The notes under the pieces: generated by a model
What the model saw: only the letters and a program-made list of their open reading frames with translations
The model's database searches: none
Told to the model about the DNA's origin: nothing
Sequence record: MT446420.1
Length of the DNA stretch: 64,000 nucleotides
Source: Escherichia virus TH54
Direction: 5' to 3' (one strand)
Shown: positions 3,153 through 60,175 of the stretch, one piece after another
Layout: the number at the start of each line of letters is the position of its first letter
Numbering within the stretch: the first letter of the stretch is position 1
Translations under genes and position numbers: made by a program

Positions 3153-3368
3153 TCAACGGTTATGTTTTAAAATACTATAAAGTGCTTCTACTTGGCTTGC
3201 ATCCAGGTAAATAACATCATCATCTTGCTCAATGGAAATCCCACCAGTATTACCTTTAACAAAATTACATTCGCACACTTCAACCGGGCGGTATACGTCA
3301 CCAACTGGATGCTCAGGCTCCAGAACAATCACACCATTTTCAGAATTACCACTTGGGTCATATAACAT
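3153..3368 (-). CDS. hypothetical small protein
   Basis: ORF with internal ATG at 3368 preceded by GAGGAA; track start is TTG. Confidence 0.35.
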   Translation of the reverse strand: MLYDPSGNSENGVIVLEPEHPVGDVYRPVEVCECNFVKGNTGGISIEQDDDVIYLDASQVEALYSILKHNR

Positions 3369-3459
3369 TACAGTTTCCTCGCTAACCATGAAAAGAATAA
3401 ACCAATTAAAACAGGCCCTATAGCCATTGTTAACCAAGCCCAAGGTTCAAGATAGTAAA

Positions 3460-3717
3460 TCATCTCATGCTCCTGTGCCAACAATTTCTTGGTTCACGTT
3501 TAAAAATTTCATCATGCATTGATTGACAACCAACACAATATATCACACCCCTAATCGCTTGTCTCCGCGCTTCAGGAATTTTTTCATCGCAGTCAAAACA
3601 GAATTCAGCAGACTCCCTTTCAACTGCAACCTGTGCTCTCGCATGGGTGATAGCGGCTTGTACAACCGCTTCCATCTCTAACTGTTCAGCACCATCTTTT
3701 GCAAATCCAACAGCCAT
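3460..3717 (-). CDS. DksA/TraR-type C4 zinc-finger protein
   Basis: 85 aa with CFDC-x17-CVGC spacing typical of the TraR/DksA zinc ribbon. Confidence 0.5.
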   Translation of the reverse strand: MAVGFAKDGAEQLEMEAVVQAAITHARAQVAVERESAEFCFDCDEKIPEARRQAIRGVIYCVGCQSMHDEIFKREPRNCWHRSMR

Positions 3718-3899
3718 TATTCTTTCAACCCATTCAGATAAGCAATTAATTCTTCTTTAGAACTATTCAAATCACGCTTGCACTGTTCTATTCCAGAATA
3801 TGAATAACCTTCACATAATTCAACAGCCAGGTCATTGGATGCGTTTTCAATGTGCCAAGCAAGTTTGATAATTTTTTCAATCTGTTCAGTAGTTAACAT
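3717..3899 (-). CDS. small helical protein, member of tandem MITLEQA/MLTTEQ paralog triplet
   Basis: 60 aa, MLTTEQIEKIIKL N-terminus; similar to two upstream neighbours. Confidence 0.45.
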   Translation of the reverse strand: MLTTEQIEKIIKLAWHIENASNDLAVELCEGYSYSGIEQCKRDLNSSKEELIAYLNGLKE

Positions 3900-4093
3900 T
3901 ATGCAGTCCTGTAATCAATAATTTCGTCAAGGAACATATCCAATGCTTCCAGAGCATTGTCAACCTTTGCTTCTAATTCTTCACCACCACCAAGCGATGG
4001 GGACCAATACGCAAAGTCATTTAGTGTTTCATCTGCTTCGCGAATCGCTTTTACCAATGCTTTAATTCTATCAGCTTGTTCTAAAGTAATCAT
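3899..4093 (-). CDS. small helical protein, tandem paralog
   Basis: 64 aa, MITLEQADRIKAL; start region DNA nearly identical to the 4278 copy. Confidence 0.45.
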   Translation of the reverse strand: MITLEQADRIKALVKAIREADETLNDFAYWSPSLGGGEELEAKVDNALEALDMFLDEIIDYRTA

Positions 4094-4278
4094 TATTCCA
4101 CCAATGATTCAATGAAGGTATCAAGAGCTGCTTTAGCTTCATCCATTTGTTCTTCACACCGATTTCTGGTGTAATAATCAGATAAATCAGATTCAGATAC
4201 TACAGTAAAGAATCGGACTTCTTTCTTGTAGTTGGCGATAAGTTCTTTAAGTTTTTGAGCTTGTTCTAAAGTAATCAT
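4093..4278 (-). CDS. small helical protein, tandem paralog
   Basis: 61 aa from internal Met MITLEQAQKLKEL; about 30-bp identical DNA repeat at its start. Confidence 0.45.
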   Translation of the reverse strand: MITLEQAQKLKELIANYKKEVRFFTVVSESDLSDYYTRNRCEEQMDEAKAALDTFIESLVE

Positions 4279-4481
4279 TATTCCACCACATATGATAATG
4301 AGAAAATTGCTGATGAAAGATGAGTAGCATCTTCTTCGCACAGTTCAAATGGAGCTTTCTGTAAGAGTTCAACAACTTCTTCATCAGTGGCACTGTCCAT
4401 AAAGATTGCATAATCATTAAGATAGATAACAACCTCATCACCAGTATTAACTGCATCAATCTTGATATTTTTAATTCTCAT
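4278..4481 (-). CDS. hypothetical small acidic protein
   Basis: 67-aa ORF directly downstream of an early promoter cassette. Confidence 0.45.
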   Translation of the reverse strand: MRIKNIKIDAVNTGDEVVIYLNDYAIFMDSATDEEVVELLQKAPFELCEEDATHLSSAIFSLSYVVE

Positions 4482-4483
4482 TG

Positions 4484-4540
4484 TATTCTCCTCAGTAGTT
4501 GATGGGATAATAGTACACCCTTTTTATGAGGATGTAAACC
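4484..4540 (-). promoter_or_regulatory. early promoter (-35 GTTTAC, -10 TACTAT) with GGGATA inverted repeat
   Basis: minus-strand GTTTAC-N18-TACTATTAT immediately upstream of GGAG and ATG at 4481. Confidence 0.5.
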
Positions 4541-4547
4541 CCTAAAT

Positions 4548-4582
4548 GAAAAAAGGTCCACCCGAAGGCAGACCTTTTGAAT
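4548..4582. terminator. bidirectional intrinsic terminator hairpin
   Basis: AAAAAA-GGTCCacccgaaggcaGACC-TTTT; sits after the stop of ORF 4582-4965. Confidence 0.5.
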
Positions 4583-5327: not shown

Positions 5328-5598
5328 ATCTTTTAAACTTGAAACAATATATTGCAAATAAATCAGAAAAATGGCTATCAACCCATATTCTTTGCACTGG
5401 ACTAGTAACAGTCAGCATATAATGTGCTTTTTGTAAATTTATTCCATTTTTATTCGGACATTCTTTATTAACAGAATGGTACGTGCTTGCTACTATTTCA
5501 ATTTCCCTTTCATATCTCTCGCTATCTGTTTGTGTGGGGATAAATGCAATTCCAGCAATAACAAAAATAGAGATATACGTCCAAATCTTATATATCAT
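5323..5598 (-). CDS. small membrane protein
   Basis: 91 aa with one N-terminal TM helix (ISIFVIAGIAFIPT). Confidence 0.4.
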   Translation of the reverse strand: MIYKIWTYISIFVIAGIAFIPTQTDSERYEREIEIVASTYHSVNKECPNKNGINLQKAHYMLTVTSPVQRIWVDSHFSDLFAIYCFKFKRL

Positions 5599-5605
5599 AA
5601 GGACC

Positions 5606-6178
5606 TCAGCTTGTCAATTCGAGCCAATGTTTCCTGCATAAAGATACGTACGATTCATTCCCACCGACCAATACTTGCTCGCCGTCCTTTACAGCAGCAC
5701 CGTCGATTACTCGAGCGGTCATGGTTGCTTTCCGGCCGCAATGGCAGACGCCCTTTAATTCAACCAGTTTATCCGAAATAGCCAGAAGTCTGGCTGAACC
5801 GGGAAATAACTGACCCCGAAAATCTGTTCTTAGCCCGTAACACATAACGGGGATATTGTAATTATCAACCACTCGTGCTAACTGGTCAATTTGCTCTGGC
5901 AACAAAAATTGAGCTTCATCGACCAGGACACAATGGATGTCCTTTTGAGACTCGGCCCATTTATAGAATTCAAACAGGTTCATGTCGGCCGTTACCAGGT
6001 TTGCTTCCTGGCTAATACCAATACGTGATTTAATTTCAGATTCCGAGTCCCGATTATCAATAACAGGCTTTAGCAAAAGCACACTCATTCCACGCTCTTT
6101 ATAGGAATAAGCGGCAGTCAGCAATGAAGCTGTTTTGCCTGCATTCATTGCTGCGTAATGATAAATTAAACTCGCCAT
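5606..6178 (-). CDS. tk: thymidine kinase
   Basis: 190 aa; P-loop AAMNAGKTASLL, VDEAQF and CHCGRKA zinc motif; near-colinear with T4 Tk. Confidence 0.9.
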   Translation of the reverse strand: MASLIYHYAAMNAGKTASLLTAAYSYKERGMSVLLLKPVIDNRDSESEIKSRIGISQEANLVTADMNLFEFYKWAESQKDIHCVLVDEAQFLLPEQIDQLARVVDNYNIPVMCYGLRTDFRGQLFPGSARLLAISDKLVELKGVCHCGRKATMTARVIDGAAVKDGEQVLVGGNESYVSLCRKHWLELTS

Positions 6179-6187
6179 ATCACCTTC

Positions 6188-6373
6188 TTAAAGCGTATTC
6201 ACATAAGCTATTAATTCGTTTTCTTTCTCATCAAATCGATTAGCAAATTCTTCCAGATGGTCGGCATCTATCGGGCCATATTCATCATAAAAGGCGTTTG
6301 CTTCCGTATGCTCGTCCAAAAGCTCATGGATAAGCTCAAACAATCTACTTTTCTGACTAATACTTAAACTCAT
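6188..6373 (-). CDS. hypothetical small acidic protein
   Basis: 61-aa ORF, overlaps next gene start. Confidence 0.4.
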   Translation of the reverse strand: MSLSISQKSRLFELIHELLDEHTEANAFYDEYGPIDADHLEEFANRFDEKENELIAYVNTL

Positions 6374-10250: not shown

Positions 10251-10550
10251 TTAAAAAGAACCAGAGCCTTTAATTGTGTTCTGGCGACCTTTATTTTCTA
10301 ATTCAGAATGGTCGATTTCGTATGCTTGTGCTACACCAAAGGCCTTTTTAACTTTAGCTAAAGAACCTTTAGATGTAACAATATTAAAAGTATTACCTTT
10401 AGTAAAATCAACCAAATCCACTTGTACACCCTGTTTACCGAGGCTTGCTACAATAGCATCAACATATTGTTGGTCTAAATTACCCTGAACCCCAATTTGA
10501 AATGCTTTAGGAGCTTTGACTTCAGTAATAAATTCTTGATAAGTTTTCAT
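10251..10550 (-). CDS. internal-protein-like, N-terminal capsid targeting sequence
   Basis: 99 aa starting MKTYQEFITE, matching the conserved CTS of T4 IPI/IPII/IPIII. Confidence 0.6.
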   Translation of the reverse strand: MKTYQEFITEVKAPKAFQIGVQGNLDQQYVDAIVASLGKQGVQVDLVDFTKGNTFNIVTSKGSLAKVKKAFGVAQAYEIDHSELENKGRQNTIKGSGSF

Positions 10551-10606: not shown

Positions 10607-10870
10607 TTATGCTTTACCGCCAGAAACAATACCAAAGGTCTCAAAGTCCCATTCAATATCGTCAACATCAACTTTCTTACCAGCAACCACGAATGCGATT
10701 TCGCGACGTTTTGCATAGGTGACAATTTCTTTACCATCACCACCAAAGAAAGAATAACCATTGCGCTTCATGGTGCCAAAGTCTTCAGCATCACCGGCGA
10801 AGGCGCGGACTTTAAAAGCACCGGTAGGAGCTTTAGCAGATTCAGTAATAAATTCTTGATAAGTTTTCAT
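10607..10870 (-). CDS. internal-protein-like, CTS-bearing
   Basis: 87 aa starting MKTYQEFITE. Confidence 0.6.
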   Translation of the reverse strand: MKTYQEFITESAKAPTGAFKVRAFAGDAEDFGTMKRNGYSFFGGDGKEIVTYAKRREIAFVVAGKKVDVDDIEWDFETFGIVSGGKA

Positions 10871-10883
10871 AATGTCTCTTTAA

Positions 10884-11198
10884 TTACTCTTTAGGGAAAT
10901 CACGCAAAAATGCATCATAAAGTTTATTACCAATGCGACGGAATGCTTTTGCCGCATGAACGTTATCCGGATTTGCAATTTTAATCTGCATTACATGACT
11001 ACCAGCCCATGATTTGGCTTCATCATAATAGCCTTTAATTTCTTTAATAGTCTTACGTTTTCCACCAGGGCCATCAACAGTAATTTTCCACGAACCCGTG
11101 CTCGTTTCACTTGGTGGGGTTAATTGTTCAATCCAGACATAACCACCTTCAACACGTTTTTGGGTAGATTCAGTAATAAATTCTTGATAAGTTTTCAT
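10884..11198 (-). CDS. internal-protein-like, CTS-bearing
   Basis: 105 aa from internal Met MKTYQEFITESTQKR; promoter and SD precede this Met. Confidence 0.55.
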   Translation of the reverse strand: MKTYQEFITESTQKRVEGGYVWIEQLTPPSETSTGSWKITVDGPGGKRKTIKEIKGYYDEAKSWAGSHVMQIKIANPDNVHAAKAFRRIGNKLYDAFLRDFPKE

Positions 11199-11200
11199 TT

Positions 11201-11258
11201 TATATTCCATTGTTTGGTTGATAAAATCATTATACAACCTTTTTAGTTAAGCGTACAC
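11201..11258 (-). promoter_or_regulatory. early promoter (-35 GTGTAC, -10 TATAAT)
   Basis: minus strand TGTACG-N17-TATAAT upstream of ATG 11198. Confidence 0.5.
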
Positions 11259-19218: not shown

Positions 19219-19524
19219 TTAGATTTTGTTTTCCTGTACACCATAATAAAGCTCATCAGACACAATATCCAGGATGCGGCGAACATATTCATCATGGTAT
19301 TGACAGTCAAAATCAAATGCAACAGTAGTTTCCGCTTCACGAGTGAATTTAACTTGCACATTCAGGTGATTAACAACGTTAGTTAATTTATCAGTAAAGA
19401 ACTCTTTTGCTACCGCCTGTTGGACTTGCACTTTGAACTTGGTGTTACGAATCATATTTTCAGCAGATGCGAAATTACCAGTTTTATCAAAGTCAACAAG
19501 CGCCAGGTTGATGATGAATTTCAT
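19219..19524 (-). CDS. hypothetical protein
   Basis: 101-aa ORF downstream of promoter cassette. Confidence 0.45.
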   Translation of the reverse strand: MKFIINLALVDFDKTGNFASAENMIRNTKFKVQVQQAVAKEFFTDKLTNVVNHLNVQVKFTREAETTVAFDFDCQYHDEYVRRILDIVSDELYYGVQENKI

Positions 19525-19527
19525 TTT

Positions 19528-19600
19528 ATTCTCCAGTGTTTTATTTGGTAACTCAGTATGGAATCATTATGCCTTAAAGCAGGGGGCTTGTATACCCCCT
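19528..19600 (-). promoter_or_regulatory. early promoter cassette; -35 in loop of GGGGG/CCCCC hairpin; conserved leader
   Basis: minus strand GGGGGTATACAAGCCCCC hairpin, CATAAT -10, leader GATTCCATACTGAGTTACCAAATAAAACACTGGAG. Confidence 0.55.
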
Positions 19601-20041: not shown

Positions 20042-20110
20042 ATTATCCCGTTTGTTTATTTGTTAACTCAGTATGGAATCATTATGTCTTAGTTAAATTC
20101 CAAAGTACAC
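20042..20110 (-). promoter_or_regulatory. early promoter cassette (-35 GTGTAC, -10 CATAAT) with conserved leader
   Basis: same leader block as 33-100 and 19528-19600. Confidence 0.55.
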
Positions 20111-20919: not shown

Positions 20920-20998
20920 ATTTCTCCAAAGTTTTGTTTGATTCAGTGTGTAACTCAGTATGGAATCATTATGCACCCGGTCAATTCGGATGTACACT
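20920..20998 (-). promoter_or_regulatory. early promoter cassette (-35 GTGTAC, -10 CATAAT) with conserved leader
   Basis: GTGTACAtccgaattgaccgggtgCATAAT plus leader block. Confidence 0.55.
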
Positions 20999-23576: not shown

Positions 23577-23579
23577 TTT

Positions 23580-23633
23580 ATTCTCCTCAGTAGTTGATGG
23601 GATAATTATACGCTATCCCATTCAAATGTACAC
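23580..23633 (-). promoter_or_regulatory. early promoter (-35 GTGTAC, -10 TATAAT inside GGGATAG inverted repeat)
   Basis: minus strand GTGTACAtttgaatgggatagcgTATAATtatccc. Confidence 0.55.
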
Positions 23634-23888
23634 TTATTTTTTAGGGATACGATAGTAACGCATCTCAACATCTTTCTGCTTGTGCCACTTTTTGATAAGG
23701 TCTTCAGAACCTTTAATGGTAACGATGTCATAGCGACCATCATGCGATACTTCAGCACTTAACTGCATGAAGTTGTCTAATGAACGGCGGAATTCTTCAT
23801 TAGAAAAACTGCCACGCGGGGAACCAACATAAGCAAACTCAACTTTTGCATCTGCGGCTTCGTTAATAAATTCTTGATAAGTTTTCAT
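23634..23888 (-). CDS. internal-protein-like, CTS-bearing
   Basis: 84 aa starting MKTYQEFINE. Confidence 0.6.
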   Translation of the reverse strand: MKTYQEFINEAADAKVEFAYVGSPRGSFSNEEFRRSLDNFMQLSAEVSHDGRYDIVTIKGSEDLIKKWHKQKDVEMRYYRIPKK

Positions 23889-57610: not shown

Positions 57611-58891
57611 ATGGCAAAGATTAACAAATTACTGCGCGAGTCAACTATTACTACCAGCAACTCCTTGGGCCGCCCGAATCTTGTTGCTTTGACCCGCGCT
57701 ACGACTAAATTGATTTACCGCGATATCATCGCTGAACAACGTACTAACCAGCCTGTTGCTGCACTGTATGGTGTTAAATATCTTACTCCTGATAACGAAT
57801 TCAGTTTCCAGACGGGCGCTACTTATGGAGGTGAAGTCGGTTCTAAAGACCGTACAACTATTCCAGAGTTAGCTACAGCCACTCAGCCTGTGGCTAAAGG
57901 CGAATATGTAAAATACCAAAATATCGTTTACAAAGCTCTGGTTGATAATCCATTTGCATCGACCACAGAAACAGTGTTATCTGATGTTCTGCAAGAAGGT
58001 CTTATTGCATCGACTATTCGCCTTGTTCCTGATGCAGCACACACCGAGAAATTTGAAACCGGTGATGTTGAAATTAGCAATGCTGTATTCCAGGTTAACA
58101 AATGGAATGCTCCGGTTAAAACACGTAAATTGAAAACTGCATTAACTGTTGAACTTGCCCAGGATATGGAAGCAAATGGTTTTAATGCTCCTGCTTTCTT
58201 AGAAGACCTGCTTGCCACTATTATGGCAGATGAAATTAACAAAGATGTTCTTCAGTCTCTTATTACCGTTTCCAAGCGTTATAAAGTAACTGGCGTTTCT
58301 GACAATGGTTCGGTTGATTTGACATATGATGCAGCCCCGGAAGGCGCACGTAAACTGTATGAACTGGTTTGCGAAATGAACTCCGAAATTCAGAAAACTA
58401 CATCTTATTCCGGTACCTTTGTTGTTGCCTCTAGCCGTGTTGCTGCTATGTTGGCCGGTTCTGGTTGGTTGAAACACAGACCAGAAGATGAGCAATGGCT
58501 CCCCGAAACCGCTTATGGATATTTGATTAATGGTCTCCCTGTATTCTGTGATGTTAACAGCCCATTGGATTATGTAACCGTTGGCGTTAAAGAAAATTAC
58601 GGCGGAAACGAAGTCGTAGGTTCAATCTTCTATGCTCCTTATACCGAAGGCCTGGACTTGGATGATGAAGAGCACGTGGGCGCGTTTAAGGTCATCGTGG
58701 ACCCAGACAGCTTGCAGCCATCTATCTCCCTGATGGTTCGATATGCACTTTCAGCCAACCCTTACACCGTTGCTAAAGACGATAAAGAAGCTCGTATTAT
58801 CGATGCAACCAATATGGATTTAATGGCCGGTCAGAGCAACATGTCTTATCTGCTCGGTGTTAAACTTCCGCCAATCATTTATGAGGCGTAA
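57611..58891 (+). CDS. 24: capsid vertex protein gp24
   Basis: 426 aa; MAKINKLLRESTITTSNSLGRPNLVALTRATTKLIY close to T4 gp24. Confidence 0.9.
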   Translation: MAKINKLLRESTITTSNSLGRPNLVALTRATTKLIYRDIIAEQRTNQPVAALYGVKYLTPDNEFSFQTGATYGGEVGSKDRTTIPELATATQPVAKGEYVKYQNIVYKALVDNPFASTTETVLSDVLQEGLIASTIRLVPDAAHTEKFETGDVEISNAVFQVNKWNAPVKTRKLKTALTVELAQDMEANGFNAPAFLEDLLATIMADEINKDVLQSLITVSKRYKVTGVSDNGSVDLTYDAAPEGARKLYELVCEMNSEIQKTTSYSGTFVVASSRVAAMLAGSGWLKHRPEDEQWLPETAYGYLINGLPVFCDVNSPLDYVTVGVKENYGGNEVVGSIFYAPYTEGLDLDDEEHVGAFKVIVDPDSLQPSISLMVRYALSANPYTVAKDDKEARIIDATNMDLMAGQSNMSYLLGVKLPPIIYEA

Positions 58892-60175
58892 ATGCAAAAG
58901 ATTAATGCACTAATTCACGAATCAACATTAACGGCGGCCAACCAGGTCGCCCGTCCTAATTTGCTTTCTTATACACAGGCTACGAATAAACGAATTTTTA
59001 AAGCACTCGTGGCCGAGCAGAAAACTACCCAGCCTGTTGCAGCGCTGTATGGTGTTCGTGTTCTGAACCCAGATGATAAAATGACTTATCTCGGTGGAGC
59101 AACATTCGCGGGCCAGATTGGTATGTTCGAGCGTAAGAATATCCCAGAATTTACGAACAAAGACGAAGCTTATGCAGTCGGCGATATGTTTCAGTTTGAA
59201 AGTGTTGTATTCAAAGTTCTGGAAGCTTCACCCTTTGCCGGGACACTCGAAACTGATTTAGGTGAAGTTATTTCTGAAGCCATTGCTGCTGGACATATAA
59301 GAATGATGTCAGATGCTGCTTTCACTGATAAATTTGAAAAGGGGCATCCTGAAATTGCTGAAGCTGGGTTCCGTATCGATAAATGGCAGACTGAAGTTAA
59401 ATCCAGAAAGTTGAAAACTTCTTTAACTGTCGAGCTTGCCCAGGACCTGGAAGCAAACGGTTTCGATGCAACAGACTTCATCGATAATATTCTCGGCATT
59501 CAAATGGCAGAGGAAATTAATAAGGATGTATTGCAATCCCTTATTACTGTTAGTTCCCGCTTCAAGGTACAAGGTGTTTCTGAAAAAGGCGTCCTGAATC
59601 TTACTGACCCGAAATATGATAACGCACAGGACCGCGCACGAACCCTGTATTATTATATGTGTGAAATGAATTCTGCAGTTCAACGTCAGACTTCGTTTGC
59701 TGGTACATATGCGGTTGCTTCTTCCCGTTGTGCAGCTATTTTAGCCGCTTCTGGTTGGGTTGAGAAAAAGGAAGACCAAGATGAATTAGCCTATGGTGTT
59801 CTGAAGAATGGTTTGCCTCTTTATGCGGATATGAATAGTCCATGCGATTATGTTATTGTTGGTGTAAATGCGGATATGGGCGAGGGTCAGACGGTCGCAT
59901 CTTTGTATTATGCGCCTTATACGGAAGGGCTTAGCGAAGTTGATGATGAGGGTGATACCTCGGTTGGGGAATTCAAGGTTATTGTTGACCCTGAAAGCTT
60001 ACAGCCTACGGTTGCACTGTTAGCTCGTTATGCTTTGACTGCTAACCCTTACACCGTTGCTAAAGACGATAAAGAAGCCCGCATTATTGATGGAGCTGAT
60101 ATGGATAAGATGGCCAACCAAAGCCAATTGAGTTCTTATCTTGGTGTTAAACTTCCACCACTGGAAAAAGAATAA
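58892..60175 (+). CDS. second gp24-like capsid vertex paralog
   Basis: 427 aa colinear with upstream gp24 (shared SRKLKT..TVELAQD, LQSLITVS, YAPYTEGL, ANPYTVAKDDKEARIID) but more divergent. Confidence 0.85.
   Translation: MQKINALIHESTLTAANQVARPNLLSYTQATNKRIFKALVAEQKTTQPVAALYGVRVLNPDDKMTYLGGATFAGQIGMFERKNIPEFTNKDEAYAVGDMFQFESVVFKVLEASPFAGTLETDLGEVISEAIAAGHIRMMSDAAFTDKFEKGHPEIAEAGFRIDKWQTEVKSRKLKTSLTVELAQDLEANGFDATDFIDNILGIQMAEEINKDVLQSLITVSSRFKVQGVSEKGVLNLTDPKYDNAQDRARTLYYYMCEMNSAVQRQTSFAGTYAVASSRCAAILAASGWVEKKEDQDELAYGVLKNGLPLYADMNSPCDYVIVGVNADMGEGQTVASLYYAPYTEGLSEVDDEGDTSVGEFKVIVDPESLQPTVALLARYALTANPYTVAKDDKEARIIDGADMDKMANQSQLSSYLGVKLPPLEKE

Follow-up and report, generated by a model that had tools for sequence, protein, structure and literature searches.

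Three short DUF7438 genes downstream of mobD.5

The window (the whole 64,000-nt stretch of DNA that was analysed) was assigned by megablast to Gaprivervirus, the VR7-like T4-type phages of E. coli. Three short genes, which we call g1, g2 and g3, make up a DUF7438 locus between a MobD.1-like gene and rI/tk. All features of this locus lie on the minus strand:

3460..3717, minus strand: DksA/TraR-type C4 zinc-finger gene, next in the operon after g1, which it overlaps in GAATAATG
3717..3899, minus strand: g1, 60 aa, start MLTTEQIEKIIKL; DUF7438 paralogue, orthologue of T4 MobD.3
3899..4093, minus strand: g2, 64 aa, start MITLEQADRIKAL; DUF7438 paralogue, orthologue of T4 MobD.4, with mosaic alleles
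4073..4103, minus strand: boundary block copy 2, the identical 31 nt; end of g3 (..L-V-E-stop), TAATG, g2 codons 1–7
4093..4278, minus strand: g3, 61 aa from the ATG at 4278, start MITLEQAQKLKEL; ncORF101c/phrog_4859 subfamily, an optional cassette
4258..4288, minus strand: boundary block copy 1; end of mobD.5, GGTGG Shine-Dalgarno-like run, TAATG, g3 codons 1–7
4278..4481, minus strand: mobD.5-like gene, 67 aa, phrog_3024; first gene of the operon
4510..4538, minus strand: promoter-like site of the T4 early type, ahead of the mobD.5-like gene (TTTACA, 17 nt, TACTAT)
4551..4578, minus strand: terminator-like hairpin, a 12-bp stem followed by a T run, closing the upstream DUF5856/rI unit
6188..6373, minus strand: fourth DUF7438 paralogue, tk.2-like, 61 aa, E 2.2e-16; 1.9 kb away, upstream of tk

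An earlier note on this DNA had described three back-to-back ORFs of 60–64 aa, and we recovered all three with the N-termini that it quoted (3717–3899, 3899–4093 and 4093–4278). The genes are consecutive, with one-base stop/start overlaps (TAATG). The g3 open reading frame can be extended to a GTG at 4341, in an extension that overlaps the mobD.5-like gene; MITLEQ is the start in all homologues.

Because the promoter-like and terminator-like sites lie upstream of mobD.5, we read the operon in the order promoter, mobD.5, g3, g2, g1 and DksA/TraR zinc-finger gene, continuing beyond, and we presume that the site at 4510..4538 is its start. In T4, mobD.5 has an early promoter and an early transcript (PMC1702504). 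The g1–g3 locus is probably part of an early, translationally coupled Gaprivervirus operon, a judgement that we make jointly for this and the other parts of the explanation developed below. Promoter-like matches were not enriched in the window (17 found versus 13.2 expected). A 28-nt leader beside the promoter-like site (from 4484) recurs at 23579.

All three frames look translated

Genes of 60–64 aa are very short, and at most one of these frames might be real, with chance ORFs in AT-rich DNA making up the rest; the earlier note had itself raised the case of a single translated frame. However, the products of all three frames match Pfam above its cut-off, and the genes are conserved in hundreds of phages, g1 being matched in 585 phage records and g3-like genes in 191. 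Between alleles, dN/dS was 0.11–0.34 for g1 (one pair having zero non-synonymous changes), 0.15–0.42 for g2 and 0.02–0.12 for g3. The coupled stop/start overlaps and the confident hairpin models for g2 and g3 (see below) also speak against chance ORFs, which we consider exceedingly improbable. Across the full dN/dS range of 0.02–0.42, g1, g2 and g3 are under purifying selection, and judging from these comparisons all three look translated. We saw no diversifying selection in the inter-helix loop, pN/pS being at most 0.57 and below 1 in every region.

Each gene has a closer counterpart in Tequatrovirus

The three genes belong to one family, as the earlier note expected. All three match DUF7438 (PF24219; curated gathering score 25 bits, model of 57 positions), with E values of 4e-17, 1e-10 and 1e-10 and scores of 62.8, 41.9 and 41.9 bits for g1, g2 and g3, respectively. 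The tk.2-like protein scores 60.4 bits, and all four matches cover model positions 1/2–57. g1–g3 also match PHROG 653 and/or 4859. Known members of DUF7438 and of these PHROGs (T4 MobD.3, MobD.4, MobD.2a and Tk.2, and RB14 ncORF101c) are 57–67 aa long and have the hairpin in common with g1–g3. In T4/RB14 as in the window, DUF7438 genes occupy the early hyperplastic region between nrdC.11/mobD and tk, with several paralogues per genome in tandem downstream of mobD.5. RB14 has four of them (mobD.4, mobD.3, mobD.2a and ncORF101c), and each T-even-type genome examined has two to four; unlike T4, the window phage has no mobD.2a at the T4 position. The family is phage-restricted, and a HMMER search (E ≤ 1e-3) of 1.84 billion cluster representatives yielded 26 DUF7438 clusters at 50% identity, most of whose proteins are ~50–70 aa long.

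Identity among g1, g2 and g3 is only 25–34%. By comparison, g1 is 60–62% identical to T4/RB14 MobD.3 (19–27% to the other paralogues) and g2 is 61–66% identical to T4/RB14 MobD.4 (23–34% to the other paralogues). g3 is 45% identical to RB14 ncORF101c over its full length, without gaps and with the longer helix 1 included, and its best profile match is to phrog_4859 (E 4.8e-13, versus 1.2e-11 for phrog_653). As for gene order, g2 lies directly downstream of mobD.5 in RZ and L011-18, as expected of mobD.4, with g3 intervening in the window; g1 lies directly downstream of mobD.4, as expected of mobD.3, and the g2>g1 boundary is conserved. g3 does not have an ncORF101c-type position: the RB14 gene is found between mobD.2 and ncORF100c, and g3 between mobD.5 and mobD.4. 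On the strength of these comparisons, we take g1, g2 and g3 to be true paralogues that diverged anciently into the MobD.3, MobD.4 and ncORF101c/phrog_4859 subfamilies. Since each has a closer counterpart in Tequatrovirus, the duplications would be older than the split of these genera.

g3 is a new and rare member of an established family, newly arranged within a hyperplastic region of a familiar kind. In the HMMER search it had a 50% cluster to itself. Compared with known DUF7438 genes it is a rare, divergent allele, at most 46% identical to any of 50,697 phage records, from which it is absent as such (best tblastn identity 45.8%, and no megablast match over the body of the gene).

The mobD.5/g3 and g3/g2 boundaries share an exact 31-nt block

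The earlier note had also reported a block of about 30 bp, nearly identical at two of the gene starts. The block proved to be an exact repeat of 31 nt (4073–4103 and 4258–4288), far beyond what chance would give in 64 kb (~2e9 position pairs × 4^-31); the coordinates first proposed for it, 4068–4100 and 4255–4285, were off by 3–5 nt. It is the core of a 44-nt direct repeat of 91% identity (4060–4103 and 4245–4288) with a spacing of 185 nt. The coding strand reads TGGTGGAATAATGATTACTTTAGAACAAGCT, that is, the V-E codons and stop of the upstream gene with the GGTGG run, the overlapping ATG and the ITLEQA codons; the left part of copy 1 is formed by the last codons (..V-V-E-stop) of the mobD.5-like gene. 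g2 and g3 are identical at 21/21 nt in codons 1–7 and at 43.5% of positions beyond. Given the peptide MITLEQA and the window's own codon usage, the probability that the six synonymous codon choices coincide is P = 0.0026. The block is absent from g1. In total, the window contains 21 exact repeat pairs of at least 18 nt, several of them also at gene starts.

The earlier note took this locus for a recent tandem amplification followed by diversification, in which a triplicated gene would have diverged fast and kept identical starts for lack of time. The three genes are indeed adjacent, similar in length, members of one family and alike in their N-terminal peptides, and tandem amplification of segments is known in T4 (PMC9391042). 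However, the 25–34% identity among them compares with 45–66% to the Tequatrovirus counterparts, g1 is without the block, g2/g3 nucleotide identity drops in one step to 43.5% after codon 7, the dN/dS values (0.02–0.42) show no burst of adaptive change, and some other contexts have g3 but lack g2. We abandoned recent triplication as very unlikely. As far as the sequences tell, the abrupt drop after codon 7 is best read as a boundary of recombination or conversion and not as the result of even divergence. Identical gene starts are thus not the same as recent duplication, however tempting that misreading may be.

Where, then, does the block come from? At the mobD.5/mobD.4 boundary it is present with 1 mismatch in RZ, with 3 in a T4-like contig from IMG/VR and with 5 in RB14, and we therefore consider it, with the same joint judgement as above, to be probably the ancestral mobD.5/mobD.4 boundary and not the remnant of a recent gene copy. 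The window would have two copies because g3 sits between mobD.5 and mobD.4, ends in TGGTGGAATAA like mobD.5 and begins with the 21 nt of mobD.4.

Alternatively, the identity of the block might be purely due to selection on the translation start (its ribosome-binding run, stop/start overlap and unstructured mRNA) and on an N-terminal helix-capping peptide, with no recombination or conversion at all. In codons 1–7 of g1, synonymous diversity is ~6–9 times lower than in the rest of the gene (pS 0.056 versus 0.31–0.50), and the boundary RNAs have less structure than shuffled controls (folding z +0.6 and +1.1), as initiation regions should; selection on the initiation region therefore contributes. 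Moreover, GGTG[GA] followed after 3–5 nt by ATG recurs at unrelated boundaries, including the end of p78 (see below). Conservation of the start region is partly functional constraint, and this could mimic homogenisation. Nevertheless, orthologous mobD.5/mobD.4 boundaries differ at 1–5 of the 31 positions, so the sequence is not fixed by selection, VR7 g2 carries 2 changes in codons 1–7, and the coincidence of codons has the low probability given above. With the gene orders and mosaics described in the next section, these points make selection on its own a rather unlikely explanation.

Several other roles for the block were rejected. It does not qualify as an RNA element: an Rfam search of the boundaries gave no match, and they have no stable structure. 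From a candidate promoter in copy 1 (4304..4277, 9/12), transcription would begin after the ATG. Nor does MITLEQA qualify as a capsid-targeting or protease site: it does not fit the gp21 motif, as the P3 position relative to the Glu is not L/I, and g1–g3 are early genes.

Gene order between mobD.5 and g1 varies among relatives

We compiled the arrangements found in related phage records and metagenome contigs. A search for contigs encoding the exact g3 of the window gave no record, and the contig contexts were taken from cluster members. The interval from mobD.5 to g1 occurs in six arrangements of g3, g2 and p78, the last being a 78-aa gene unrelated to g2/g3:

This window: mobD.5, g3, g2, g1
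RZ and eight metagenome contigs: mobD.5, g2, g1
VR7: mobD.5, p78, g2, g1
UPEC07 and most sequenced Gapriverviruses: mobD.5, p78, g1
L009 and L010: mobD.5, g3, p78, g1
L008: p78, g3, g1 (mobD.5 absent)

Copy number in related phages, which the earlier note had suggested comparing, thus differs between relatives. Every arrangement is joined exactly at the start codon ATG, and every recombinant would therefore be in frame and expressed. The window's g3 is 98.4% identical in nucleotides to that of L009/L010, where p78 follows it, and 94% identical to that of L008, where g1 follows it. Three near-identical metagenome copies of g3 exist, and in other contigs g3 occurs without g2 and beside other genes. 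The g2 alleles are fine-scale mosaics. L019/L020 are recombinants between T4-type and Gaprivervirus-type phages, with a T4-type mobD.5, a Gaprivervirus-type 3' part of g2 and g1, and a crossover in the 5' third of g2. Variable cassette order with exact joins, together with clear mosaic alleles and inter-genus recombinants, counts against block identity maintained by selection alone.

Taken together, these results suggest that old DUF7438 paralogues have been shuffled as cassettes by recombination at short boundary homologies within a coupled operon. We consider this explanation, as a whole, probable. Recombination of T4 at microhomologies of 6–10 bp, leading to amplifications and deletions, is known (PMC9391042), and conserved flanking motifs, the PeSLs, are sites at which ORF cassettes are shuffled in T4-type phages (Arbiol et al. 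2010, PMC2839356). Between mobD.5 and mobD.3 there would be a cassette site in which g3, g2 and p78 are present, absent or reordered among relatives. In the simplest origin, a mobD.5-g3-p78 genome and a mobD.5-g2 genome would have crossed over ectopically within the TGGTGGAATAATGA that they share, giving the arrangement of the window. The direct 31-nt repeats would also allow precise loss of g3, with the RZ arrangement as the result. The direction of events may have been either way: g3 may have been inserted, or a fuller ancestral array may have lost different genes in different relatives. We read this cassette recombination from arrangements and mosaics rather than from directly observed events.

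A variant would start from a full ancestral array (mobD.5, g3, p78, g2, g1) that was trimmed by deletions at boundary microhomologies, the window having lost p78. The order g3 < p78 < g2 < g1 is kept in 5 of the 6 arrangements, the boundaries of p78 (GGTGAyAT-ATGA) and g3 (GGTGGAATA-ATGA) have a common microhomology, and T4 deletes between microhomologies of 6–10 bp (PMC9391042). However, the full array was in none of the genomes found, the p78-g3-g1 order of L008, without mobD.5, is beyond the reach of deletions alone, and g3 is rare, being absent from the 50,697 phage records. We regard trimming of a full array as a serious but less likely history.

We also entertain, as a speculative extension, that the stop/start boundaries (GGTGG-AATA-ATG plus the first codons) are dedicated recombination linkers, that the DUF7438 hairpins are a diversified library of binders, and that g3 is one rare specificity. 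If so, mini-genes ready for expression would be exchanged within one operon, much as in an integron without the integrase, and the binder library would be directed at host defence or takeover targets.

Likeness to known shuffling systems

A close parallel is the PeSL, a promoter-early stem-loop motif with sigma-70-like -35/-10 boxes through which T4-type phages shuffle modules (PMC2839356; Comeau et al. 2014, PMC4122927). PeSL cassettes are likewise gained, lost and moved by homologous recombination between short conserved flanks that carry a Shine-Dalgarno sequence and end in ATG. In both cases recombinants stay expressed, and the cassettes are small accessory ORFs in hyperplastic regions. 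The breakpoints also agree with those of PeSL cassettes, the six arrangements being joined at the ATG. The flank in the window differs from a PeSL in being an intra-operon stop/start boundary with the first codons, 14–31 nt in all, and in having no promoter or stem-loop of its own, the cassettes lying under one upstream promoter. We accordingly do not class the boundary blocks as PeSLs: they form no stem-loop (z +0.6 and +1.1), and a well-placed promoter-like site with a terminator-like hairpin is found only upstream of mobD.5.

The ip genes of T-even phages are also tandem, otherwise divergent small genes with near-identical start DNA. Their start, MKTYQEFI(A/T)E, is a signal for capsid targeting and protease cleavage. 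g1–g3 do not carry this sequence, their N-termini being MITLEQA and MLTTEQI, and MITLEQA is not known to have a signal role. Genes bearing MKTYQEFI(A/T)E are present elsewhere in the window, and ip-type start repeats, in identical blocks of 30–33 nt, occur at ~10.5–11.2 kb and 23.9 kb.

The locus reveals no new kind of system. It is a small, clean example of T4-type accessory genes that appear to be reshuffled with joins at translationally coupled boundaries, such that new gene combinations would be expressed at once.

The proteins are predicted helical hairpins with widespread misleading labels

The earlier note had guessed that the proteins are helical hairpins, and structure prediction bore this out. 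AlphaFold2 models showed antiparallel helices at residues 4–30 and 37–63 in g2 (pLDDT 92.9) and at residues 4–29 and 35–60 in g3 (pLDDT 80.8). With these two models in hand, each of the three proteins is predicted to be a two-helix hairpin; all are acidic (pI 4.1–4.7) and roughly 7 kDa. Helix 1 is predicted to begin with MITLEQA as its N-cap and first turn. In BFVD, the closest matches are 54–61 aa long and uncharacterised, most of the named ones being from T4-like phages, and fold searches returned generic hairpins only. ColE1 Rop/Rom likewise consists of two antiparallel helices of ~27 residues (Foldseek TM 0.84–0.91 to Rop), and this geometry makes dimerisation into a four-helix bundle possible.

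Comparison of the family profile with PDB sequences gave no informative match, and searches of the proteins against NCBIfam and PADLOC gave nothing meaningful. In the literature we found no functional studies of mobD.3, mobD.4, mobD.5, DUF7438, mobD.1 or tk.2, and the supplements of the accessory-gene screen of Silas et al. make no mention of mobD.3/mobD.4/tk.2-type genes. T4 tolerates deletion of its nrdC.11-mobD.3 region (PMC9825161). From the early expression, the dispensability, the variable region, the small, acidic and helical nature of the proteins and the presence of multiple paralogues, we infer that g1–g3 are accessory proteins of early infection that the phage can do without, and that their helical surfaces and variable loop serve to bind components of the host or its defences, possibly in Rop-like dimers of four helices. 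DUF7438 is a reasonable candidate for host-interaction and counter-defence screens.

Finally, the current labels of these genes are misleading. 'Helicase loader' (phrog_4859 and some records) was rejected, DUF7438 being the only match above the Pfam/NCBIfam cut-offs and PDB giving no informative one; the label seems to have been carried over in annotation. 'Molybdopterin-guanine dinucleotide biosynthesis protein MobD', in many records, was rejected because no MobA/MobB-type Pfam/NCBIfam match was found, and this label would stem from the T4 gene name mobD.x having been misread as a molybdopterin Mob name. Such wrong labels are widespread, in the forms 'MobD molybdopterin protein', 'helicase loader' and 'valyl-tRNA synthetase modifier'.

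Natural recombinants at the mobD.4 locus

Two metagenome contigs (L019 and L020) are natural inter-genus recombinants. Their DUF5856 and mobD.5 genes are T4-type (56–61% identity to the window), and the 3' part of g2 (the mobD.4-like member of the DUF7438 tandem g1–g3), g1, and dksA are Gaprivervirus-type (97–100%). The crossover lies within the first third of mobD.4.

Further DUF7438 genes and their annotation

The window contains a fourth DUF7438 paralogue, separated from the tandem g1–g3 by rI, tk, and other genes:

6188..6373, minus strand, tk.2-like gene (profile match, E 2.2e-16)

In T4 (NC_000866), mobD.2a (5497–5678, minus strand) is annotated at 38 aa; RB14 mobD.2a has 57 aa. Two neighboring ORF pieces in the T4 interval align to family-profile positions 1–38 and 36–59, and T4 mobD.2a appears to be frameshifted relative to its RB14 counterpart.

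Public records give these 60-aa hairpins names such as [quoted passage not shown] "helicase loader," or "kilA," none of which is backed by similarity. A misreading of the gene name mobD.x, together with the copying of labels from record to record, probably produced them.

Annotation of p78, the unrelated gene found between mobD.5 and g1 in some relatives, is also uneven:

3597–3833, p78 in VR7
1555–1791, p78 in UPEC07
about 3400–3639, p78 in EAWsc9

The p78 family has 78 aa, starting at a TAATG overlap with mobD.5, and the VR7ORF109c annotation is thus 6 codons too short. The UPEC07 record calls p78 a "valyl-tRNA synthetase modifier," and in EAWsc9 no gene is annotated across the interval. No match to p78 was found in Pfam, NCBIfam, or PADLOC.

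One further start is uncertain:

3153..3443, minus strand, 96-aa ORF with a TTG start and a DUF7189 match from residue 26

Its homologues are annotated at 65–72 aa, and VR7 has a separate 31-aa ORF annotated upstream.

Repeated start regions and leaders

Other small genes share their start DNA:

10251..10550, minus strand, start-region repeat at 10521
10607..10870, minus strand, start-region repeat at 10838
10884..11237, minus strand, start-region repeat at 11166
23634..23888, minus strand, start-region repeat at 23864

The repeats (30–33 nt identical) encode MKTYQEFITE or MKTYQEFINE, which resembles the capsid targeting sequence carried by internal proteins of T-even phages. These genes resemble the g2/g3 pair in combining an identical start with a divergent body.

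The 28-nt leader of the mobD.5-like gene (4484–4511; + strand TATTCTCCTCAGTAGTTGATGGGATAAT) lies after the -10 box and before the Shine-Dalgarno sequence and recurs ∼19 kb away at 23579–23606, upstream of other small genes. Both copies look like PeSL-type early promoter/leader cassettes. Leader-type sequence also occurs in the repeat pairs 23588/23898 and 4493/23898.

Elsewhere, a 23–33-nt block (GTAACTCAGTATGGAATCATTATGC...) occurs four times (45–77, 19540–19572, 20064–20086, and 20950–20975), with extra 26–31-nt repeats nearby at 19522/20406 and 19621/20502; this block and its neighboring repeats are candidate boundary or regulatory blocks. Among the window's exact direct repeats, the longest measures 35 nt (AACCCTTACACCGTTGCTAAAGACGATAAAGAAGC, 58757–58791 and 60044–60078), with a spacing of 1.3 kb.
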